The position numbers and the translations under genes were made by a program. Below, in pieces: positions 857 to 64,000 of a stretch of 64,000 bases of DNA. Within the stretch, counting starts at the first letter, position 1. Every line of letters begins with the position of its first letter. The notes beneath the pieces were generated by a model. The model saw nothing but the letters and a program-made list of their open reading frames with translations. It was not told where the DNA came from and did not search any database. The DNA is taken from NCBI GenBank assembly GCA_024137785.1, contig JAHRHZ010000019.1, positions 44,489,624-44,553,623 on the forward strand, in the 5' to 3' direction. This DNA comes from Ginglymostoma cirratum. Lineage: Eukaryota.

Positions 857-3509
857 ATGATGAATTAACATGACTGGTCTCACCGGATTTCAAACAAACT
901 AACACGATATATCCTTCATGAATGGTGACAACGCAAATCTATGAAGGACCCCGGAAATATTCACAACTGGCAAAATAATTGGAAATTAAGAACTTTTCCA
1001 TTTCCCTACTTGAAACCAATCCTTTAAATTGTAACTAACATGAATTTAGAAAAGGCTTGTGAGGCCTTTGATATTCTTCTCAAACAAGTGACATCTCAAA
1101 TATTGAAATAACAAGGAGTGAGGATAAATGATTTAGTTGTAATAGCGTAGGCTCAGCCAGTATTAAATTCTGAGCTCACCTGCAGTCCATTTGTTAGCAT
1201 CCTAACCAAAACTGATCGGAAAAGGCAACTGAATGGCCAGCCAATTAAACTAAAGAAGTGGTCACTGGCATTGAGGTAATTTGTTGGGGCGGAAGGTTTC
1301 AGGAAGATTTTGCAATGGGAAAATGATGTGAGGTGGGACTGCAGTTTAAAGTTTTCTCAAGGGAGCCAGACAAGGGAAAGTAAAAATATTTTAATGGCCC
1401 AGATTTTTCAATGGTCAACCAGTTGTTCCTGCAGCATGGATGGGAGTTGTATGTCACAATCACGTAAAATCCCCAACATAGCAGACTTCGACGGAATTGC
1501 CAGGGAAATTGAAGATTACGATAGAGCTCTGTGAATGTATCAATGAAAATCGGAAAATTCAATGGGTTCAGCTGAAGTAAACAGTTACCCAGGAAAAATT
1601 ACACAATTAAATACATAAATACCCTAACTCCCAGGTAACTATTAAACTGACCCACAACTTACTACACACACCCCAAAAATTAAAGAACCCAAGGCCCCAT
1701 ACACACCACAGATCCGACTTCTCCACTCTGTCGCCCAGGATATGACAATTATTCACTTTCCCTGTGAACTGATATCATCCCTTCTGTGCTGTTGGACCCA
1801 ACAACGTCCAACACCACTGGGATCCAACAGGCCTCTTACCTCTCCAGGATATGTTAGAGCCAGCCCTGCTGGGAACAAACATCTCACCTCTGCTGGACAT
1901 GATATTTTCTGATCACCCCTACCTACTCTGATTACTCTATAACTTGCTTGTCCCAACTTCTACCTTGCACCCTAGCATGGTACACATCTAGCACCCTATC
2001 ATCAGGGTACCCTGCTGGCCTGGCACCGGAGTAATCTACCCACTTCATACCTGGCACTCTAACAAACTGGCATGCTTTCCTCCTGCTAGCCTAACTTACT
2101 TTTCATGCTTGCATACTTTCACAGAAGCTATAAAAGGAATTGTCTGTGTGCTGGATCTTTAATTAATCGCATACAGCAACTGGCTGCTATGTAAAAGGGG
2201 CCTTGTTTCAATTTCTCGAAATTATCCTGCACAGAGTGATCTGTCATATTTAAAGTATGTCCTACATTTCTCAAGGACCCCTGGTCAGAATCTCCTGCAA
2301 GAAATATGGAGCTCTGACTTAACATTAAAAAAAAACCCCATTAAGGATCAGAGTGTGGTTGTCACTCCTCAGGTAATCTAGCCCAAAATGTGTTTTAACC
2401 TCTTCCCACAAAGGCTTCCCATCTCAGGCCGCAGTTAAAATTGCAACTGAAGCAAATGATGCATTGGACTCTGACTTGTATTTTGATAGACACTGTCTGC
2501 TTTATGTGTGAGGGTAGCTAGCTGATCGGGAAGTTGGCTAACATAGGAGGAAGTAGGATTGTTGGTGGATGTTGATGCACAAATCACCTGAATGATTTTA
2601 CTGAGTACCTGCTTGGTTTGATCCAGTTAAAGGTTCCCAGATGTGCTGAGTCGAGTGGAGTTCTTTAGGTAGTTCAATGGATAAATAATCACCAGACTCA
2701 GGCATGTCTACAAGAACGCGGCAGCAGGTAGGGACTCTGTAACAAGTGACTCATCCAGTGACCTTGCAAACAGAGGTCAAATCAAGAATGTGACAGAATA
2801 TGACTGCATTAAAATTGCATTTTTTTGAGGCATTAAGTAATGATAGACACTCAACCTGTTCTGCCTCGAGGAATTGAGAATAGACGATCAATCTGGAGGA
2901 TCAGATGATAGTTGATTTCTTCAACTTTTATTTTATCTTTAAATCCATGCGACAGTTTGGGCAGACTGCATTGTCAGTAATTCAGCAACTATTTGAGCCA
3001 CATTCCTGTTTCTTCCAGGATCTGCTCAAACATTGAAAAAGCATCTTTCCTGGTGATAGGCAAAAGGCATAAATGTTTCATAATCTGCTATGTTAATAGC
3101 TTCGCGTCAGAGTATTTGCAATTACAGCAACAAACCTCCAGCAAGTTTTAACCAATACTGAAAATAAATCATGTGCTGTTTCAAACAATGTGACTCAGCA
3201 GTACATAAAGTACTGAACGTGGTTCACAGTGACAAATATTTCCAGAAGTAATGAATGGCTGTCAGGATCGGTGTCGACTGCAACATTGCATAATTTTAGC
3301 CCATTTTCTCATGATATCTAAGCCTATAACGGACTGACCTTTCTGTCTCTATTCAGTGCAACTGTTAATGACTCCCTTGTACCCTAGATTCTGTCACCAC
3401 GGTCAGACATATGGTTGCCAAGCTATGTAAAAACTGCTGTCAATCAAACATCAAACAATGATACATTCTTTGGAACTAATAATGGGTAATCACTTGTCCT
3501 GTAGAATTT

Positions 3510-3700
3510 GAGATAACAATCGTGGGGCTGGATGAACACAGCAGGTCAAGCAGCATCATAGGAGCAGGAAAACTTGACGTTTCGGGCCTAAACCCTTCAT
3601 CAGAAATGGGGGAGGGGAAGAGGGTTCTGAAATAAATAGGGAGAGAGGGGGAGGCGGATAGAGGATGGATAGAGGAGAGGATAGGTGGAGAGGAGGCAGA
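3510..3700 (-). mobile_element. Penelope-like element terminal (pLTR) fragment with hammerhead motif
   Basis: Nearly identical to 52881-53070. Confidence 0.85.
3572..3607 (-). ncRNA. Minimal type I hammerhead ribozyme motif, intact core
   Basis: Minus strand: attt-CTGATGA-a-gggt-ttag-gccc-GAAA-cg-TC-aagt. Helix I is attt/aagt, helix II is gggt/gccc, and stem III is the palindrome ACGT. Confidence 0.7.
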
Positions 3701-5047: not shown

Positions 5048-5420
5048 TCAGAGATAAAAGGTACTGCAGATGCTGGAGAATCCGAGATAACAAGGCGTGG
5101 GGCTGGATGAACACAGCAGGCCAAGCAGCATCATAGGAGCAGGAAAGCTTGACATTTCGGGCCTAGACCCTTCATCAGAAATGGGGGAGGGGAAGAGGGT
5201 TCTGAAATAAGTAGGGAGAGACGGGGAGGCGGATAGAGGATGGATAGAGGAGAGGATAGGTGGAGAGGAGGCAGACATGTCGAAGAGGCAGGGATGGAGC
5301 CAGTAAAAGGTGAGTGTAGGTGGGGGGGTAGGGAGGAGATAGGTCAGTCCAGGGAGGACGGACAGGTCAAGGGGGCAGGATGATGTTAGTAGATAGGAGA
5401 TGGGGGTGGGGCTTGAGGTG
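5048..5420 (-). mobile_element. Penelope-derived ~370-bp unit with hammerhead motif (stem III variant GAAATGTC)
   Basis: Highly similar to 52881-53215 and to the reverse complement of 46183-46549. Flanked by the near-duplication cataaaagtga (5037-5047) / cataaagtga (5422-5431). Confidence 0.85.
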
Positions 5421-29480: not shown

Positions 29481-30342
29481 GAAATACCATTTGTTATTCT
29501 GTTTACCAAAGATATGTTCATTAGATTTTAACCAGAGGAATAGAAACTACAGTAATGAGTTGACCTAGTTAGTTGACCAACTGACTCATCCATGGACAAC
29601 ATCATTTGACCAAATCCAGTCTGGTCTTTGAAGAGTTTAATTGCACACTTGTGTATGAAGTTGTGAAGACTTCCTTGGACTTGAATGTGAATCAATAATA
29701 CACTTCCTTTTTGTCTGACTCCCTGTCCATAACAACACTTTAAAAAAATAACAAAATGACTCAGAAATCTGAATGACACGACACAGTACACCTGTCTACT
29801 AAAATGAATATTTAGAATGAAAGAAGTTATTTTTGACATTGATCTTCCCTTCCAGCTGCACTTGTGATCCTTGTCCATGTTTTACTCTTCTCACATCGCT
29901 CAGCTCAGGTGATAGCATGAGATAAATGTCTCTCTGGCCCTGCCATTTTAACTTTCTGAATTAGCATATGAATCGTAAGATATTTGATGACAGGGGAAAA
30001 AAAGTGTTGACCAACTGTGCTGTGTTGGCTCTTTAGAAAAGCTATCAATTACAGTGATCCATTCTCTTGGTCCTTTCCAATAAGCCCTATTTTCTTCTTT
30101 CTACTCACACAAGAGGATATCCAATAATAATTTGAAAGCCATTATTGAATTTGTTTCAATTCTGCTTTTATGGCATCATATTCCAAATCCATCACAGTTA
30201 GTGGGAACAAAATCTGAGCAGCTAGTAAAACAGGTTACAGTTTGCTCTGGAGATAGTAGGAACTGCAGATGCTGGAGAATCTGCGATAACAAAGTGTAGA
30301 GCTGGATGAACACAGCAGGCCAAGCAGCATCAGAGGAGCAGG

Positions 30343-30742
30343 NNNNNNNNNNNNNNNNNNNNNNNNNNNNNNNNNNNNNNNNNNNNNNNNNNNNNNNNNN
30401 NNNNNNNNNNNNNNNNNNNNNNNNNNNNNNNNNNNNNNNNNNNNNNNNNNNNNNNNNNNNNNNNNNNNNNNNNNNNNNNNNNNNNNNNNNNNNNNNNNNN
30501 NNNNNNNNNNNNNNNNNNNNNNNNNNNNNNNNNNNNNNNNNNNNNNNNNNNNNNNNNNNNNNNNNNNNNNNNNNNNNNNNNNNNNNNNNNNNNNNNNNNN
30601 NNNNNNNNNNNNNNNNNNNNNNNNNNNNNNNNNNNNNNNNNNNNNNNNNNNNNNNNNNNNNNNNNNNNNNNNNNNNNNNNNNNNNNNNNNNNNNNNNNNN
30701 NNNNNNNNNNNNNNNNNNNNNNNNNNNNNNNNNNNNNNNNNN
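30343..30742. other. Assembly gap (400 N)
   Basis: Run of N characters. Confidence 1.
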
Positions 30743-30766
30743 GGGCCTAGACCCTTCTTCAGAAAT

Positions 30767-30798
30767 CTCTGAAGAAGGGTCTAGGCCCGAAACGTCAG
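30767..30798 (+). ncRNA. Minimal hammerhead ribozyme motif (CUGAAGA variant)
   Basis: ct-CTGAAGA-a-gggt-ctag-gccc-GAAA-cg-TC-ag. The core is intact but helix I has only 2 bp locally. Confidence 0.5.
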
Positions 30799-31264
30799 CC
30801 TCCCTGCTCCTCTGATGCTGCTTGGCCTGCTGTGTTCATCCAGCTCTACACCTTGTTATCTCCTTTAGTTTGCTCTGTTTCCTTAAACCCTGACTCAGGA
30901 CAGGGTTTTTTTTTGTGGTTGGGAAGATGGCACAGATGTTGAAGAAGACGATTCCCACCCTCGATATTTTGCTGCTTTGGGAGATGGCTGCAGGTGGTGA
31001 GCCTCTGACCAAGCCAGCTCCACTGTAGGACTAGTTATCTACTCGTCTCCAGCAATTCTCGTGGAGACAGGTCAGTTTCTCTGTCACCTCTAATTGTCAG
31101 AATCAAAAAAGGAGTCATGAATCATTGTCTGGGTGTAGAAACCTTTTGCAGTATGCCTTCAAATGGTCTCCTCATGCTTCCCTTGACACCCGTGCTATCA
31201 CCACTCCCAATGATCCCTTATTCTTTTCATGTCTCTCACCTCAATTGCTCCTTGTGCTCTCTAT

Positions 31265-31570
31265 GCCACCTTATGCCCTTTCACCCACCAATAATTGTCA
31301 TTCATACCCTCCATGCCAAATTGTAGCATTTCTGTTCACTCAGAATACACTCTGTACAGAACTAATAAACACTATGGTAACAATGACATGTATGTAACTG
31401 CTTAATAAAGCCACCTTATGCCCTTCACCCACCAGCAACAGTCCTTCATACGTTCCATGCCATATCTTAGCATTTCTGTCTACCCAGCATGTCTATTTAC
31501 CCAGCATACACTCCGTGTAGAACTAATGAACCCTATGATAACAATGACGTGTGGACCTGTTTAATAAAGC
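31265..31570 (+). repeat. Diverged tandem duplication, two copies of a ~145-160 bp unit
   Basis: gccaccttatgccctt...tagcatttctgt...gaactaat...acaatgac...ttaataaag occurs at 31265-31409 and again at 31410-31570. Confidence 0.9.
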
Positions 31571-31961
31571 CATTCACAACTTTGTTTCGAAAATGAACTC
31601 AGGTTACTACAATTCTACAAGCGTGTCAATCTAACAGACATTTAAAATATCCATAGCAGAAAATATAAACACTTAGGGTCCTCTTCATCTCATGTAATTA
31701 AGCATTGAGTCATTGGCAATATACGTTAAGGAAAAAAATATCAGTGAAGAAATGGTCTCTTTTTTGTGTAGCTATTTCAACAAACAAATGGAAGTCTCGG
31801 CTCATCATGAATAGAGGGGTATGGGTTATCAAGAAGGGCCTTGGGGCTTTTAGGGGTGTGTGGTGGGGCATGATTTTACATAGAATGCATGAGGAGCCAC
31901 TGAGAGTAGATGAAGGGTAAAACGAGTGTGTGAAGGGGTTTGCATGTAAGAATATCTAATG

Positions 31962-32331
31962 AGATAACAAGGTGTAGAGCTGGATGAACACAGCAGGCCA
32001 AGCAGCATCAGAGGAGCAGGAAGGNNNNNNNNNNNNNNNNNNNNNNNNNNNNNNNNNNNNNNNNNNNNNNNNNNNNNNNNNNNNNNNNNNNNNNNNNNNN
32101 NNNNNNNNNNNNNNNNNNNNNNNNAGCTGGATGAACACAGCAGGCCAAGCAGCATCAGAGGAGCAGGAAGGTTGACGTTTCAGGACTAGACCCTTCTTCA
32201 GAAGAAAGGTCTAGGCCCAAAACGTCAGCCTTCCTGCTCCTCTGATGCTGCTTGGCCTGCTGTGTTCATTCAGCTCTACACCTTGGTATCTCAGATTCTC
32301 TAGCATCTGCAGTTCCTGCTATCTCTGAAAC
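31962..32331. mobile_element. Palindromic Penelope-terminus unit 2, containing an assembly gap
   Basis: Arms are inverted about cttcttc-a-gaagaa (centre ~32200). 10-bp target-site duplication atatctaatg at 31952-31961 and 32332-32341. Confidence 0.85.
32025..32124. other. Assembly gap (100 N) with overlapping flanks
   Basis: Run of N. The sequence agctggatgaacacagc...aggaagg appears on both sides, suggesting an unmerged overlap. Confidence 0.95.
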
Positions 32332-33913
32332 ATATCTAATGGGATCTGAATTAGAGCCAGGCTATCCACTACTCCACTAAGGCACATGAGGCCCAGCTTT
32401 ATTGATAGCCATGGCTCTCTGATCTCTGTTATCACTTTCACCAAGGCTACTTACATAAGGTAAAAATTTCAAGTGCTTTTCAGTTTCAATTACGAAAACT
32501 TTAAAAGTTTGGATGACTGAGCACTTTTATCGTGCTATAATAAGAAGGATTTCTTTCATTTTAGTGGAACATTAAAAGAAATGTTTATAGAAATTTTTGT
32601 TTATGCATCTAACTATTGTGTAGAATTAATTTCTTTTTATAATAATGTAATGGGTGAGTGAATATGGAAGCTTAGCATGGGAGGCAGATATTGTCACAGT
32701 TGTTGTTTTGGTGCATAACTTACAATGGAGGGCAGGAGGGGCCATGAGAAATGGGTTAGGTTGGGCACAAACTGGTATGGACAGGACAGGGACAGTGCGT
32801 GGAGGGAGAGGAGTGGGAGAGAGATGGTGGTTCTTCCTGTTTTTTATTGTTGCTAGGGTGATGTCCTACAGCACAATCCTTTTGAACAGCCTCATACCCT
32901 ACGGCCTCTCTGATTGTCTCTGAACATTTTTGCAGTCAGTCAGTCTGACATGCATAACCTGGCAATGAAAATCCTGTCCTTATGGGCAGTGTCTCCCAAC
33001 AGGGCAAGGTGGAAATTTTCCCACTACTTGCTTCGAGACTGAAAATCCATGTTCAAAAGCTATTTACAGTCAAAGTTTTGGACTTGTCCATGGAGTGTGA
33101 TTTCATTTCAGTACATCATTCCCTTAGATAAATGGAAAAACACTGAAAATTGAAAAATCAAAATAAAGACATAAAATTGAAAATTTATAGAAGATGTAGC
33201 AGAAGGAAAGAAGAAATCTCACTCGGATGAAGAGTACCTGCCTGGGATATAGTAATGCTCAATTTCTCTTTAAGGCATGGACAGACCTGTTAGATAGTTT
33301 CAGAATTTTGTAAATTCATCAAGACTTTAAGTTTTTGAAGATTTTGCATTTATGTACTTATTTGATAGATTTCACCAAATTTACACAATATGTATTTATG
33401 ATACTTGAAGTTATATTAATCATCACAATGTGATACTGGAAAAATGTTTAGGTAGTCAGTGCAATATTTGAAGAGTTCACGTCTTTGAGCTTCAGGAACA
33501 ATATTACTTGTTGTAGATCAGATTGGAACAGCATGTCAAATAAAAGAAAAACTCTGCCTCACTTATTGAAATAAACAATGCTAATGGATATATGAGAAAG
33601 TTAGTTATCTCACTTCATACCCTCCCAAACCTCATGGGAGAAGAAAAGAACCAAAGATGACCACAGAGGAACACAGGAAGAGAAACCACATGGTACAAAC
33701 TGTAAATTCCTTGGAAGGACATGTATCACTTGTGATCTTCAAAAAAGATTAGCCATGGTATGTGAAAGATAATAACATAGCCACCTATCTAAATTGCTAT
33801 TTTTATGTTAATGCTTGCAACAAAGATTATTCTAATTTTGCAATCTTCAACTTTTGCTCATGAACATGCATTTTGATAAACTGGATTTCCTAAACCAATC
33901 GCTTAATATTTTT

Positions 33914-34012
33914 GAGATAACAAGCATGGGGCTGGATGAACACAGCAGGTCAAGCAGCATCATAGGAGCAGGAAAACTTGACGTTTCGGGCCTAAACCCT
34001 TCATCAGAAATG
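33914..34012 (-). mobile_element. Short Penelope terminal fragment ending at the hammerhead
   Basis: Near-identical to 3510-3608; similarity stops immediately after helix I. Confidence 0.85.
33976..34011 (-). ncRNA. Minimal type I hammerhead ribozyme motif, intact core
   Basis: Minus strand: attt-CTGATGA-a-gggtttaggccc-GAAA-cg-TC-aagt. Confidence 0.7.
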
Positions 34013-35244
34013 CCCTTTTCATTGCAACCAAAGATAAACAAAGATAAAGAATGCATTTCTACACCCAGCCAATAATGTTGAATTTTCAGGCGTTCTTCTC
34101 TGCATTAAATTTTTATGCTTTATATATGTCCACGTGCATCTAATTGTATTCTTGTTTGCACGAACAGCAATCATTAAGAAATCGGCAATCATTTCTACTC
34201 AGATTTCCTTCTTTCTATTCCATCGCATTACCATGAATTGAATTCTGATCCATCAACTGATTATAAAAATAGTTGCGGTCTTTAAGCACAAGCAATTGTT
34301 CTTTGTGAGTGAGTCGTACTATAGAACAGAATTAGTAACTGGACATACTGGGAAGGGTCCTGATGGATAGATACCAGCTTTGTCCATATGCATTTGTTTA
34401 TGTGGAAATATATTTCTTGGACAATGAATGGAACCGTGCAAATAAAAAGAGCTATGGATTTGAGGTAAGGAAGAAATAAGCAGCAACTAAAGGATAGTCA
34501 ACAACAGCAGGAGGTTCAAGGACCAAGAAGAGAGATGTGTAGAATGAACAAATGGTTTTGGCTGAGGCAAGTAGAGGAGTATGAGGGAAAGTGATGGTAC
34601 AGCAGTCGTACCAGTAAACAGGCTATTATTTTTCCATCTGGCTATTTTTCAGTGGAAAATTAGGGCAGAAGACCAAACAGAAGCAATCAGCAAGCCTGAA
34701 AATGAAATTATGGAGAAGATTTTATTACACAGATAGCCAACAATATGTCCATATTTAAACACGCAAAATTTATCTGCATATTTTAAATTTATGTGGAAGT
34801 CCCATACATATATATTTCCACATAAACGTAAAATACATGGATGAATAGGCATGCTTAAGCACACAAATAAAAAAGGTATCTGTACAATAAGCAGTTGAAT
34901 TGAATTTCTTAACAACGGATTTATTCATCAAAAGGATTCAAGCTGACTACTGATCTTTTTCTTCTCCATAGTTTCAGAAACTACAGTCAATCAAAATTGC
35001 TATTTTCAGACTGACTTGATCACTTGATATCAGCCAGATATTACTATAGTCCTAATTTAAGATTTTATGGAGATATGTGAAACTGTCAAGGATACATTGT
35101 TGTTCTTAACACATTATTTGGCTTATGACCATTCAATACTTTTAAAAAAACATGAAAACAGTTTTTAAATTAAAATAAATTATTTTTTCTTGAAAGATTC
35201 ACATGCTTTGTTTCCTTGATTTGAATAATTGCCATGCTTTCTTG

Positions 35245-45904: not shown

Positions 45905-46690
45905 CATAAGTGGGTCAGATCTCAAACAACGATGAGGCAGAGTACAGGAGACAGTGAGCTTAGTAGCTTGGTGTAAAGGCAATAATTTCTCTCTCTCAGT
46001 GTCAGTAAAACAAAGGAGCTCGTCATTAACTTAGCAAGCAGAGTGGAGGACACAGCCCTGACTATATCAATGGTGCTGATGAGGAGGTGGTCAAGGGCTT
46101 CAAGTTCCTAAGAGTAAATATCACCAACAATTTGTCCTGGTCCATCCACGTTGATGCTACAGTCAAGAAAGCACACCAATGCACCTCAAGCCACACCCCC
46201 ATCTCCTATCTACTAACATCATCCCGCCCCCTTGACCTGTCCGTCCTCCCTGGACTGACCTATCTCCTCCCTACCCCCCCACCTACACTCACCTTTACTG
46301 GCTCCATCCCCGCCTCTTCAACTTGTCTGCCTCTTCTCCACCTATCCTCTCCTCTATCCATCTCTATCCACCTCCCCCTCTCTCCCTATTTATTTCAGAA
46401 CCCTCTTCCCCTCCCCCATTTTTGATGAAGGGTTTAGGCCCGAAACGTCAAGTTTTCCTGCTCCTATGATGCTGCTTGACCTGCTGTGTTCATCCAGCCC
46501 CATGCTTGTTATCTCGGATTCTCCAGCATCTGCAGTACCTGTTATCTCTCACACCAATGCCTCTACTTCCTCAGAAGGCAGAGGAAATTCAGCATGTCCA
46601 TAATGACTTAGCAATTTTCATAGATGCACCAGAGAAAGCATCATATCCAGACGCATGACAGCTTGGTTATGGCAGCTGCTCTACTCCAGG
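45905..46690 (+). mobile_element. Rex1/Babar-like LINE RT C-terminal fragment, interrupted by a Penelope unit
   Basis: Motifs ISNNDEAEYR, WCKGNN, SKTKEL and FKFLRVNITNNLSWSIHVDATVKKAHQC. The frame resumes as LYFLRRQRKF after the insert. Confidence 0.8.
46183..46549 (+). mobile_element. Penelope-derived ~370-bp unit with a mutated hammerhead (TTGATGA)
   Basis: Reverse complement of the 5048-5420 type. Exact 11-bp target-site duplication cacaccaatgc at 46172-46182 and 46550-46560. Confidence 0.92.
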
Positions 46691-50105: not shown

Positions 50106-52880
50106 CTCACATACATACACATTTGTACTTTTTAAACTGTGAAGGATACCACTTCTGATCTCAGTACGAGGACGAAGCTTTCCTAAAACAGCCGGAAGAC
50201 TCATTTCCCACCCCACGTTATGGCTTCAATTGCAATGTCAGTGAAATCTTCCTGCAATTGTGCCTTGACATTGACAGATCCACATACATGCAGTTCTTTC
50301 AGTATGGATATATGGTGGGGACAGGATATGTCGGGTATAATTTTAAACTTTGGATGGCAGCATTAAAAATCTATTGCACCGCATGCGGTAAGTGGCCCTG
50401 CAAAGTGACAGCAGAGTCTGCCTCCAGTGGTCCGAGAAGCTCTGATTTTACTTTACATGATTCAAGCAATTATCGACCTGAAGTTGTGGATTCTGTCCTT
50501 CTGAGACAGGAGGTTGGAAACTGCAAGCCATATCAGTGGGCGAAATGGTGGCCTGGAAGAGAATGGAACTGTGCCCGCCCCGCAACTATATCCCCACCCC
50601 ACCCTCAACTGATCCAGCCATTGAATAAGGAGCAATTCAGCCAATTTGTGGACTCCATGTGGGTTCCCAGCCCACATCTACGTGAAACAATGGGCTACTC
50701 ATCCAATGGCTTTGCAATCGAGGCATGGAGCAGGAGGGTCAGAAGTAGCCAGAGTGTGAATTATTAAAGGGGCAGCTGGCACCACTCTGCGCGCATTGGT
50801 CAACCTCACCCATTTCACGAGGAGGAAAGGAGGATTATGTATTGTGTAGGGAAGCTGTGTATCTCACTGGAGGAGAGTCTTAAATGTCTTTTCTCACCTG
50901 AAGGGAGTAATTATTAAGGTTTCTTATCAAAGATGAAGAGATTAATCCGAAGAAAAAAAGTGGGAAAGTCGGCAGGGAGAAACGTTGCTGGATCAGAGTG
51001 ACCACAGGTGTGTTTCCCTAAGCAGCAGAGGGATGTCAGAATATACAGTCAGAAAGGTGAAAGGAGAATCCCTGTGGTTTGATGAGGACTCTGTGAGAGC
51101 CCTGTCTAGGCCAACAGCAGAAAGTGACAGCTCCTCATGCCAGCTGATCATTTAAGGACACCTCCCAGCTTCTCTCCCAAAAATAATCTGGATGGAGTTT
51201 GCAGTGGAGGTCAGCAACAGTGGCATCACTATTTGGATCTGGAAGTAGAGTTGAAAGCAAATGAACGATTGACTGAGATCAGCTGTAAAGCTTAATCACA
51301 GAAGTGGGCATAGAAGGAAAGGTAATTTAAAGGTGCCATCTTGGCATTGAATTGTCTGGCACCCAGAGGTGTGAGGGGAGAGGATATAGGCATTACAATA
51401 GAGAAAGGCCAGGGGATGATGAGGGGTTTGCAAATGTGATGGGTGGTGATTGGAAAGACAATGGCTGGAGCACTGTCATTGCCTGGCACAAGGTGGAGGA
51501 ACCACATTTTGTTCCTGCACCCGTTTGAGTGTGACTGAGGTACCACATGATCAGACCGGACCAATTCATGACGGCCCAGGGTAGGGGCTCGCACCTCAAG
51601 GCCGAGGAAAACTCAAGCTGGTGAGGGTACTGCCCACTCCCCCTTGCAGCTACCACAGACAAAGAAATGGAGACGGCTTCTGGGATGGCAGTCAGAGGAT
51701 TGAAGGTGTTGGTCCAGATGCTGAATCCCAGTGGGTATGATGAGTCACTGGAGTATGCATGAGAAAGATGCTGAATGTCCAGCCAGACCGGCTTGGAGAT
51801 ATGGCTGGGTTACGAGAGGATTTCCTTGCTATGGCAAGGACTTTGGAGGTGTCCATCCAGATGTTAAGCACTGCATTCCCCCAGTCGTCAGAGTGCTCTG
51901 CCTCTGCCCTGGTCAGGATGGTGACTGCCTTAGAGGGCCAGGTCCAGCTGATTACAGAAGCACTGAGAGGTGTTATGACCAGGACTCTATCACCCTCAGG
52001 CTGGGTCCTCGGGATGTACTACCAAGGCCACAGAGGAACCAGAGGCTGGACACACAACATTGTCCCTCCCGGGTAAGCATGGAACTACCGTCAGACCTCA
52101 ATGCCAGTGAGCAGGTGGTTCCACCTGCAAGTTCCTCTCAAGGTATTTCTGATGGACACATAACACTTCCCTCCACCACTAGGCCTTTGACCAAACCACA
52201 GTCTGTTTCTGCAGAGACAGGAGGTATCTGATCTTGAACATTATCCATGGCTGTTCCCTTGTGGCCAAAGCAAGTTAGAGAACGACATCCAAATATACCT
52301 AGCACAGAGCTTGAAAACAAGTCTAAATATCACTATCGATAATCACAAGTTGTTCAATTTTGCTGTCCTTTGATCACCCCAAATTGTGAAGGGGGTTTTG
52401 TCCAGTAAACATTTGTTTTATTTGCACCAGGTGTAAATTCATAGCTTTATTAATGCTTTAAGTTAGAGAAGAAACACAAAGTAATGAGTAGCAGATAATT
52501 CAAGATGTTAAAATAGATGTTGGATGGATTTGAGTTAAGTGTTGGCTATTGTCCCGAGTTATAATGTGAACATTCTTTCATTAGGAGGTGGTCTGGTGAC
52601 ACTGCAGCTAGACTGCAGGCTGTTCAGATCTGTACAGTGTGTATTCTCCTGAAACATCCGCATTATTAATATATCATGTATCTCATTGCCATCAAGGTGA
52701 TCCATTGCAGGGCCCTTCATCTGTCCTAATATAGTTTGTCAATGCTTTAGGGGAGTTAATCAGAGGATTCAATGTCATCTTGTGGTTCCTCTTCCTCCAT
52801 AGCATCCCATCCATGCAATGTACAGTTGTATCCTTATCCCCAAGCAGCCCAATTTCCAAAGCATCATGCCTGTTGACCCA

Positions 52881-54118
52881 GATAACAAGGCGTGGGGCTG
52901 GATGAACACAGCAGGTCAAGCAGCATCATAGGAGCAGGAAAACTTGACGTTTCGGGCCTAGACCCTTCATCAGAAATGGGGGAGGGGAAGAGGGTTCTGA
53001 AATAAATAGGCAGAGAGGGGGAGGCGGATAGAGGATGGATAGAGGAGAGGATAGGTGGAGAGGAGACAGACAAGTTGAAGAGGCGGGGATGGAGCCAGTA
53101 AACGTGAGTGTAGGTAGAGGGGTAGGGAGGAGATAGGTCAGTCCAGGGAGGACGGACAGGTCAAGGGGGCGGGATGATGTTAGTAGATAGGAGATGGGGG
53201 TGTGGCTTGAGGTGAGAGGGAGAACAGGTTCGGGAGGCGGGGACGAGCTGGGCTGGTTTTGGGATGCGGTTGGGGGAGGGGAGATTTTGAAACTTGTGAA
53301 ATCCACATTGATGCCATTGGGCTGCAGGGTTCCCAGGCTGAATATGATTTGCTGTTCCTGCAGCCTTCGGGTGGCATCACTGTGGCATTGCAGGAGGCCC
53401 AGGATGGACATGTCATCTGAGGAATGGGAGGGGGAGTTGAAATGGTTCGCGACTGGGAGGTTCATTGTTTGTTGCGAACTGAGCGCAGGTGTTCTGCAAA
53501 GTGGTCCCCAAGCCTACGCTTGGTTTCCCCGATGTAGAGGAAGCCACAACGGGTACAGCGGATGCAGTATACCACATTGGCAGATGTGCAGGTGAACATC
53601 TGCCTGATGTGGAAAGTCTTCTTGGGGCCTGGGATTGGGGTGAGGGAGGAGGTGTGGGGGCAGGTGTAGCACTTCTTGCGGTTGCAGGGAAAAGTGCCGG
53701 GTGTGGTGGGGCTGGAGGGGAGTGTGGAGCGGACAAGGGAGTCGTGGAGGGAGTGGTCCCTCCGGAAGGCAGATAAGGGTGGGGAGGGGAAAATGTCTTT
53801 GGTGGTGGGGTCTGATTGCAGATGGCGGAAGTGTCGGAGGATGATGCGTTGGATCCGGAGGTTGGTGGGGTGGTATGTGAGGACGAGGGGGATTCTTTTT
53901 TGGTTATTCTTGCGGGGACGGGGCATGAGGGATGTGTTTCGGGAAATGCGGGAGACACGGTCGAGGGCGTTCTCGACCACTGTGGGGGGGAAGTTGCGGT
54001 CCTTGAAGAATGAGGACATTTGGGATGTACGGGAGTGGAATGTCTCATCCTGGGAGCAGATGCGGCGGAGGCGAAGGAATTGGGAATAGGGGATGGCATT
54101 TTTGCAGGAAGGTGGGTC
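52881..54118 (-). mobile_element. Young 5'-truncated Penelope-like retroelement (RT thumb/linker, GIY-YIG endonuclease, pLTR)
   Basis: KNAIPYSQFLRLRRICS...RIPLVLTYHP...CNRKKCYTC...TCTSANVVYCIRCTRCGFLYIGETKRRLGDHFAEHLRSV. One frameshift near 53463, then LPVANHFNSPSHS...EQQIIFSLGTLQPNGINVDF. Confidence 0.93.
52942..52977 (-). ncRNA. Minimal type I hammerhead ribozyme motif, intact core
   Basis: Minus strand: attt-CTGATGA-a-gggt-ctag-gccc-GAAA-cg-TC-aagt, in the 3' terminal repeat of a GIY-YIG Penelope element, where such ribozymes are known to occur. Confidence 0.75.
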
Positions 54119-54899
54119 AGTCTCATAATCTGAAGGTCGTGAGATGCCTATTGACGCAGCCTGGTACTTTATAGTTCCTCAACATCAAAGAGACATGATC
54201 ACTGCCTGAATACCTGGCACGTATTTGTTGCTGATGGTCACACACTAATTGGGCACTGACAGAATGAAAAGCTTTCCTGTTGGTGATTGCACAGGGGTAG
54301 CCTGCAGCTGGTTTGTTGGGTTGTGAGATAGTTAGTCTATGAAAGTACTTGTGAAGCTTGTTATTGCAGAAAAAAAGAAGAAAAAAATCCTCAGGCTCTT
54401 TCAGACTAGCTGTAGTGGTTAATTGCAAGTTCAATAAATTGTTCAGCACATTTGGTTGTTTAGGCCGCAGCTGGAGTACAGTGTGCAGTTGTGGAATCCA
54501 CATTATAGGAGGGATGTGATAGCATTGGAGACAGTGCAGTGGGGTTTTACTGGACTGGAGAGTTTTAGCAATGAAGAAAGATTGGACAGACTCGGCTTAT
54601 TTATCTGGAAACAGAGGAGAGGGAGGAATATAATTGAGATGTATAAAATCATGAGAGGCATTCATGAAGTAGACAAGGAGGAGATTTACTCCTTGGTGGA
54701 GGGATCAATGATTGGGGGCATAGATTTAAGGTAAGGGGCAGGTGGTTTAAAGAAATGTTAGGAAAAAATATTTCACCCAGAGGGTGGTGGAAATCTAGAA
54801 TTCACTGCCTGTAAAGATGGTGGAGGCAGAAACCCTCATAACATTGAAGATGCAGCCAGATGTACACTTGCAATGACAAACCATAGAAGGCTTGTTGTA

Positions 54900-63165: not shown

Positions 63166-64000
63166 AAAGTGCTGGAAAAACTCAGCAGGTCTAGCAGCAT
63201 CTGTGGACAGAAAGCAAAGTTAACACTCCTAGCCACAGATGTTGCCTGACCTGCTGAGTTTCTCCAACAATTTCTGGGGTTTTTTTTACCCTCTCAACTC
63301 TACCTGTGCCATTTTCCGGAAATACTCTCCATCTCCTCCTCAGTGTCAAGTTACAGATTTGAGGTACTTCAGCTACTACTGAAATGCAAGCTTCTATAAC
63401 AATGTGATACATGAAATAATATAGAAATTACTTCACTAAAAAGTCTGACATTTCATTCCCTAGATTTGGACATAACTGGCAAGATCAACATTTATTGCCG
63501 TTCTAAATTATCTGGAGAAAGTGTCAGGCACACTTATTGAATTGTTGGTGATGGTTTGATGCAATTTAGCAGATTGCTAGATTACTTCAGAAGGTCATTA
63601 AAAGTCAACCATGTCGATTGGGAAGATTGTAATCAAATCCAGATCAGAGTGGGTAAGGTCAGTATATTTCCTCTCCGAAAGGACATTAATACACTATCTT
63701 TTAAAAATGACAATATTAGAGGAATTGTTATTCTTATTATGAACAGGTTCTTATTTTCCTTTTATAGAAAAACAAATTCAAACTTACTTAACAACATATG
63801 CTATTGTGAAATTTGAATATTCTCCACACGACTATACATATAATATGACAGGACAAGTTAAAAAAGAAAATCGATGAAAGATCACAGTATCCATTATATG
63901 GTGCAATTGTCTGAACAAGCCTTCCCAATCAGTCATAATGATAATTATGAAGACAGCCAAATAGCAAGAGAGGGAGAGAAAACATGCCATATTTTAGGAA

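Follow-up and report, generated by a model that had tools for sequence, protein, structure and literature searches.

The locus and its two palindromic units

The window analysed here is a 64,000-nt stretch of the Ginglymostoma cirratum genome (contig JAHRHZ010000019.1, positions 44,489,624 to 44,553,623 of the forward strand), that is, 64 kb of a 4.36-Gb genome. It contains two insertions in which the ends of a Penelope-like element (PLE) are joined head to head beside the core of a minimal hammerhead ribozyme, each within its own target-site duplication. Each such unit is likely a one-off insertion product and not a miniature element spreading as a unit. Positions in the element are numbered from the C of the CUGA core (+1), the predicted ribozyme cut lying between +28 and +29. 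The features of the two units are:

30239..30249, plus strand: left target-site duplication of unit 1, an exact match over 11 bp, or perhaps 14 bp with 2 mismatches if begun at 30236
30250..30342, minus strand: long arm of unit 1, PLE 3′ end with a tail of ~33 nt (+127 to about +35)
30343..30742, no strand: assembly gap in unit 1, 400 N
30743..30766, minus strand: inner end of the unit 1 long arm, with the CUGAAGA core (C at 30762) and stem II, as far as −4
30768..30862, plus strand: short arm of unit 1, ending at the short reverse transcriptase (RT) start site (+94)
30867..30877, plus strand: right target-site duplication of unit 1, pairing with 30239-30249 (12/14 at 14 bp)
31952..31961, plus strand: left target-site duplication of unit 2, 10 bp exact (12/14 at 14 bp)
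31962..32203, minus strand: short arm of unit 2, split by a gap, core C at 32201, reaching −2
32025..32124, within the short arm: assembly gap in unit 2, 100 N
32198..32331, plus strand: long arm of unit 2, with a degenerate core; the tail reaches 32325 and is followed by 6 nt of element body
32332..32341, plus strand: right target-site duplication of unit 2

The original prediction, made from the letters of the window, had described head-to-head Penelope-terminus arms, direct repeats and centres, and all of these were found where it had placed them. The exact duplications measure 11 bp (unit 1) and 10 bp (unit 2). As a control for chance, swapped flanks showed a duplication in 1/345 cases vs. 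64/88 real units. The centre of unit 1 is at 30766-30768, and the arms of unit 2 overlap by ~7 nt around a centre at about 32198-32203; in both, the CUGA core is at most 4 nt from the centre, so that the fold-back point does lie beside the hammerhead. Both also have the expected one long and one short arm, as do 66 of the 73 genomic units with canonical ends. The claim that the insertions hold only a terminal repeat and its reverse complement stood in part. A contig from another species presents an empty site for unit 1, spanning 29900-30249 and resuming at 30903 with 24 letters between, while the gap hides the interior of this unit. If unit 1 is built like the gap-free copies, about 17 nt would be absent at its gap. 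The gap of unit 2 is likely negative, because its two sides overlap by an identical 47 nt. Among the four contig sets that were compared, none closed either gap, and the set with the unit 1 empty site barely covers the flanks of unit 2 and is uninformative on that unit.

The short arm of unit 1 carries an intact minimal hammerhead core (30769-30796) with a predicted cut after 30796, and the minus-strand core of this unit runs into the gap. A ribozyme motif on each strand had been proposed for both units; this did not hold for unit 2, whose plus strand reads CAGAAGA...AAAAC with two core changes, nor for most units elsewhere, since among 78 gap-free genomic units intact cores numbered none in 36, one in 32 and two, on opposite strands, in only 10. 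A scan of the window at Rfam gathering thresholds gave 0 matches; the hammerhead assignment follows from sequence inspection and from the published description of PLE motifs (PMC4209133).

By comparison of motifs, the arms are identified as the 3′ end of a PLE of the Neptune/Nematis type, here called Neptune-type. Copies with the same variant bases as the window units run on for 2.2-2.5 kb into sequence coding for RT and GIY-YIG, with the RT followed by a C-terminal GIY-YIG domain. RT motifs are present in three such copies (L208, L240 and L182), and Pfam gave RVT_1 at E=1.6e-5 and GIY-YIG at E=0.0046, both below the curated cut-offs. These results bear out the proposed link to the Penelope RT/GIY-YIG machinery. 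No intact open reading frame (ORF) was seen in the parent-element copies, and a Pfam scan of the longer window ORF returned none at 0.01, with weak matches on shorter pieces. A Cys-rich motif was recognized by eye in the window ORF 53462-54178; such a linker, known from Neptune and Nematis (PMC8557442), is present in the RT-coding copies as well. The features of a pseudo-long terminal repeat (pLTR) are present, namely a minimal hammerhead, an optional tail of 30-40 bp and tandem or inverted arrangement, and beyond the tail the sequence runs on into the 5′ body of the element (282 exact matches), as a pLTR predicts. Four copies (L247, L252, L253, L257) represent a variant with GTGAGT right after the tail, which we take to be a splice-donor-like motif; in three of these body copies the start lies at this motif or close by.

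The bases that had been read as diagnostic of palindromes define an A variant of the family, next to which there is a T variant. Exact matches in the genome numbered 22,340 with the core of the T variant and 7,135 with that of the A variant; a 30-mer from the A-variant 3′ end had 35,916. Palindromic-centre strand-matches, in which symmetric units are counted on both strands, numbered 711 A/A, 997 T/T and 94 T/A, and reversed-pattern controls gave 0 matches. Since both variants form centres, the T variant more often than the A variant, and RT-coding copies carry the same bases, these mark subfamilies and not palindromes. The window holds five T-variant non-palindromic copies (33913-34013, 3499-3700, 5048-5420, 46182-46549 and 52880-54130), two of which are of use below:

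33913..34013, minus strand: solo copy, T variant, 5′ end at the hotspot described below (−5)
52880..54130, minus strand: 5′-truncated parent PLE copy with Cys-rich linker, GIY-YIG (E=0.0046, as above), 3′ untranslated region (UTR), hammerhead and short end

Both units are probably located in an intron of a neurexin alpha gene: a minus-strand exon at about 48192-48635 matches neurexin-1-alpha (PDB) with E=6e-89, and a second likely exon is found near 46.9-47.3 kb. Between the units there is a diverged direct duplication (31265-31572) of about 145-160 bp with 74-83% identity. At 63166-63273 lies a palindromic remnant of a second, older PLE family, with arms 75% complementary.

Distinct junctions and a common 5′ boundary

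A genome search for palindromic centres gave 22 distinct loci, most of them gap-free across the centre and with the plan of the window units. In total 96 head-to-head pairs were found and 95 kept, of which 78 were gap-free and not selected for their centre. Most units measured 130-280 bp. As many as 75 of the 78 junctions were distinct, often with short microhomologies or small inserts, and a dispersed master family sharing one junction was not seen among these 78 units. At least one arm started within −9..+10 of CUGA in 65/78, which agrees with the alternative that the original prediction had offered, a reproducible event beside the ribozyme; both arms did so in only 20/78. At two PLE 5′ junctions (L040, L042) short inserts resembling telomeric repeats were observed.

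These junctions bear on the prediction's first choice, a coding-free palindromic master copied as a unit by the PLE protein in the manner of a miniature inverted-repeat transposable element (MITE). MITEs are defined by matching terminal inverted repeats and a short fixed duplication. Here the ends were unequal in 66/73, the duplications ranged over 9-18 bp (mode 14-15), and the units are not many copies of one internal structure. Even the commonest centre (155 matches) is shared by several stem-II variants and subfamilies. Of 30 loci with this centre, at least 17 have the long tail on one side and 6 have it on the opposite side, so the side of the tail is free. Both variants as well as a second family form palindromes, and solo copies share the 5′ boundary described below. 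The RNA of a gap-free unit is predicted to fold into a hairpin of −183 kcal/mol (z −25.7), so that the motif would pair with its own complement. A master could draw support from palindromes attached to element body (L250), which could be transcribed, and from recurring junctions. Three junctions recur; one (L067/L068) resembles a mis-join, and two complex ones join diverged copies with different flanks, L091/L092 on C1, 41 kb apart, and L212/L216 on C3, 1.27 Mb apart. Genome-wide, each of the latter has exactly two occurrences, both on the same scaffold, a pattern in keeping with local conversion or mis-assembly; local conversion, local re-transposition and assembly cross-wiring are candidates for both. 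Taken together, a copied master is very improbable, while rare secondary copying or conversion of palindromes is possible.

That the palindromes are assembly artefacts around gaps is scarcely credible. Both window units do contain N gaps, and some palindromes look duplicated or mis-joined across gaps: L067/L068 and L027/L028 are doubled, with inconsistent ends, and are probable mis-joins. Against this stand the many gap-free equivalents with unique flanks and duplications of ~14 bp, the site of unit 1 found empty in another species and, in raw RNA reads, joints at which the strand switches. In these reads, from an independent study, 10 of the 14 opposite-strand joints listed had one side at +3..−4; a further 184 joints lie beyond those listed, and fold-backs made during library preparation may be among them.

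To map the 5′ ends of arms, we used 120 stretches of ~10 kb around listed matches on scaffolds C1-C4 together with the search loci and the window, giving 526 distinct arms. Rates were calculated from 322 arms, 45 of them censored at a gap or an edge and 277 scored, after leaving out arms below 85% identity, centre-chosen loci, window arms and core-pattern-targeted arms. Results showed that 5′ ends are not randomly placed relative to the hammerhead and concentrate at −6..−1, with 74 ends in 688 nt at risk (10.8%/nt). Downstream, the rate per 100 nt was 0.44 at +31..+55, 0.66 at +27..+30, 1.0 at +11..+26 and 3.0 at +1..+10; upstream it was 1.1 at −14..−7, 0.5 at −40..−15 and 0.27 at −300..−41. 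The position of this hotspot is the 5′ foot of helix I, some 30 nt from the cleavage site. Inverted arms made up about half of those scored (135/277). Starts within −6..+10 were found for 71/135 inverted and 59/142 non-inverted arms, and the latter ended at the hotspot at 6.4%/nt.

The second family noted above, with different upstream sequence (25,125 exact matches in the genome), has its 5′ starts at −1..−11 in 19 of 29 scorable arms and inside or after the core in 10, with none further up; 14 of 30 arms were flagged as inverted by a loose script test. As solo copies and the second family share it, the 5′ boundary is general to PLE insertion in the Ginglymostoma cirratum genome. Four copies of a further hammerhead family of the CTGATGATGTTACC type (L004, L154, L181, L237) all extend upstream of the core, and this family may be without the hotspot.

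Two causes of the hotspot were rejected. Ribozyme cleavage would place ends near the cut, where the rate shows no excess (+27..+30, as above) and only 7/393 arms start at +29/+30. Endonuclease cutting at ATT alone is contradicted by the ATT-rich segment −38..−29, which has 6 ends vs. 129 at −6..−1 in a sample that includes core-anchored arms.

Probable priming from both target strands and the cause of the stop

We consider it probable that the units are one-off PLE products in which both cut target strands primed synthesis and this stopped before the hammerhead. According to this account, the RT/GIY-YIG protein, probably as a dimer, would nick both target strands about 14 bp apart. From each 3′ end, copying of element RNA into cDNA would then begin, at the short internal start for one strand and at the long one for the other, mostly with one source RNA or lineage as the template of both. 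The two cDNAs would run toward the 5′ side of the RNA, mostly halting 1-6 nt before CUGA, and their ends would be joined via short microhomologies or fill-in to give a palindrome of 130-280 bp. Priming by one strand only would leave a solo stub, usually without a clean duplication, and a minority of units would probably come from fold-back of one cDNA. The ribozyme would thus serve as a place marker whose cleavage does not define the stop.

The evidence for two priming events comes from the outer ends, which lie at two sites, about +94 and +127. Single arms use them about equally (100 long vs. 97 short). Among 88 units with both ends visible, a set that includes some chosen for their centre, we found 66 long+short, 3 long+long and 4 short+short combinations and 15 units with one odd end. 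The long+short coupling (66/73) differs from an expectation of 0.5 with p=4e-13. Clear duplications, in a scan allowing one mismatch, accompanied 64/88 palindromes (mode 14-15 bp) vs. 35/172 solos, the difference that would arise if palindromes used both overhangs as primers and solos lost one of them by trimming; less clean 5′ junctions may depress the count for solos. An Anolis PLE in vitro cuts and extends both strands and has two internal RT starts 30-40 nt apart; it uses uncleaved RNA, gives shorter products on 5′-shortened RNA and is predicted to form a dimer (PMC11167929). The coupling and the duplications observed here match the behaviour of that element.

Self-priming was earlier proposed for PLE palindromes (PMC3846280). 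Applied to the present units, the RT would stop near −4, the cDNA end would snap back and be copied, and the second end would be joined to the target. Centres such as AGAAAATGAAG fit a small snap-back loop, and in 5-6 of 30 loci units with the AGAAAATGAAG centre combine a long primary arm with a second arm cut at an odd place. High concordance between arms is also in favour of fold-back. In the 66 long+short units, the arm with the farther 5′ reach (by >5 nt) was the short one in 27, the long one in 19 and neither in 20. A tail that was never copied cannot be added, so no long arm is possible from a short cDNA, and the 27/66 units exclude fold-back as the main route. Nor can fold-back mix templates, yet 94 matches join a T-variant to an A-variant arm, so that some units used two templates; it also leaves the placement of the second end at the other RT start unexplained. 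Fold-back as the general explanation is therefore improbable, and we retain it as a minor route.

Several observations weigh against priming from both strands as set out above. At 11 polymorphic sites the arms agree in 87% vs. 70% after shuffling (0 of 5000 as high), and mixed A/T centres make up about 10%, where random pairing would give about 49%; such concordance also fits fold-back or later gene conversion. One non-canonical end in 15/88 units and short inverted remnants before some solos are probably due to fold-back. Two junctions, as noted, recur at a second nearby locus. The sampled loci lie in the initial portions of scaffolds C1-C4 and over-represent the A variant, each arm was counted separately, and the assembly is gapped, with mis-joins of some palindromes possible (the two doubled pairs mentioned above). 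On the other side, 24/90 pairs differ at two or more sites, and shared rare alleles are few (9 vs. a null mean of 3.3, maximum 9). Arm concordance together with the few mixed centres suggests that both cDNAs come mostly from one RNA, source or era.

As to the stop itself, we lean toward the template RNA's 5′ end, though with confidence little better than even. A barrier is a possible but weaker candidate, and some other cause is unlikely. An RNA start is favoured because the rate falls tenfold directly upstream of −6, because many junctions carry extra T's, as from run-off addition, and because two families with different upstream sequence share the position. An initiator-like motif with A at −4 occurs in both families, and the initiator consensus fits an A at this position. 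The promoter of D. virilis Penelope is inside the pLTR (PMC2377424). Other findings tell against an RNA start. The A at −4 also closes helix I, which offers a structural reason for its conservation. Many copies read through the hotspot, and tandems restarting at −3/−4 can follow copies reaching far upstream (L241, L242, L254-L256), restarts that fit a pause as well. In poly(A) RNA-seq, a library poorly suited to this question, there was no pile-up of read starts or ends and depth was equal on both strands; a second RNA run had only 123 poorly matching reads. A cap-derived G at −5 was not borne out (3/22 solos, 3/24 inverted arms), and by eye no downstream promoter element was matched at the expected spacing, judged by PMC2377424 and the consensus sequence. 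A lariat branch point at −4 was also considered and rejected as a poor match to its consensus.

The same two-strand priming with the −6..−1 stop imposed by a barrier on a longer RNA, and not by the RNA start, is a reading we hold to be rather unlikely as a whole. Such a barrier might consist of helix I's 5′ strand engaged in a ribozyme dimer, of hairpin formation with TTCAGAA upstream or of protein bound to the C-rich tract. PLE hammerheads reportedly cleave as dimers (Lunse et al. 2017). The hotspot is the 5′ edge of a 4-bp helix I with covariation between families (AUUU/AAGU, AGUU/AACU). Arms of the A variant, which pairs better with its upstream sequence, stop there at a higher rate (12.8 vs. 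5.7%/nt), and read-through after a jump is seen in tandems. A fold, however, should block the RT on the fold's own 3′ side (+32, +20), and the rates there are low; monomer folds are no more stable than shuffles (z −0.4 to +0.9). The second family has neither the C-tract nor the hairpin, yet its boundary is unchanged, and the extra T's mentioned above resemble run-off additions.

In six copies (L242, L245, L249, L258, L262, L267) a stretch of the 5′ body (+170 to +400) runs straight into a copy that begins at −2..−5, as if the RT, after the hotspot stop, had jumped back downstream. Similar jumps are also seen from many 3′ UTR positions. A tentative extension of an RNA-start stop, which we hold somewhat less likely than not, is a strong-stop step in PLEs like that of LTR elements: a dimeric RT would begin at staggered starts near the RNA 5′ end, at the foot of helix I, both strands would be extended at once and a jump would be needed to go on, the stubs of ~100/130 nt, in their tens of thousands, and the long+short palindromes being the failed jumps. 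If true, failed jumps would explain the inverted pLTR and the one-sided tail across PLEs.

Comparison with known systems

The inverted pLTR, the one-sided tail, the duplication and opposite-strand hammerhead pairs are already published (PMC3846280, PMC8557442, PMC4209133). Insertions of endonuclease-bearing PLEs, including Adineta Pen2a and D. virilis Penelope, carry an inverted 5′ pLTR, a 30-40-bp tail at one end and a target duplication (PMC3846280, PMC8557442, PMC2377424). Like the units described here, these have head-to-head pLTRs with a tail at just one of the ends and a duplication flanking the entire insert, and show microhomology at the junction and trouble for short-read assembly. 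Unlike ours, the published insertions enclose an ORF and were attributed to self-priming; here the ends stand alone, units account for 135/277 scored arms, and junctions cluster beside the hammerhead. The origin of tandem and inverted PLE ends is stated as unresolved (PMC8557442, PMC2377424). We found no report of a 5′ hotspot or of twin priming in PLEs in a literature search of openly accessible papers and part of their supplements.

These units are of moderate value as a handle on the mechanism of PLE insertion. With tens of thousands of family copies and about half of the scored arms palindromic, the genome records the insertion reaction at base resolution. Three rules can be tested: long+short coupling, intact duplications only if both strands prime, and a fixed pre-hammerhead stop. 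In practical terms, the palindromes cause gaps in short-read assemblies and place perfect hairpins in introns and UTRs.

The L1 element offers a parallel for the inversion. In its twin priming both target 3′ ends prime cDNA and a microhomology join yields an inversion, the two cDNAs covering different parts of one RNA; here, in contrast, both cDNAs would span one common stretch of ~100 nt, each from its own fixed internal start. The Anolis Poseidon PLE (PAc) shares the cutting and extension of two strands, two internal RT starts that define the tail, and a hammerhead about 100 nt upstream whose cleavage is dispensable. It belongs to a different clade, and the available text neither connects its two-strand extension with inverted insertions nor mentions a 5′ hotspot (PMC11167929).

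Minimal type I PLE hammerheads resemble the cores found here in their CUGANGA motif, an additional base ahead of helix II, a palindromic ACGU where helix III would be and the short helix I. In metazoan PLEs, opposite-strand pairs lie 100-700 bp apart, and many single motifs stem from truncated elements. The available text of that study gives no breakpoint map, and the pairs observed here are 0-50 nt apart and unable to form a same-strand dimer (PMC4209133). Non-LTR retrozymes are likewise short, non-coding, PLE-derived and hammerhead-bearing. They are, however, head-to-tail tandems that release unit RNAs (bioRxiv 10.64898/2026.07.22.740005); the units described here lack head-to-tail hammerheads on the same strand, being head to head with at most one sense motif per strand. 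They are not a new self-replicating ribozyme element; they are a miniature, very frequent variant of the known PLE insertion structure.

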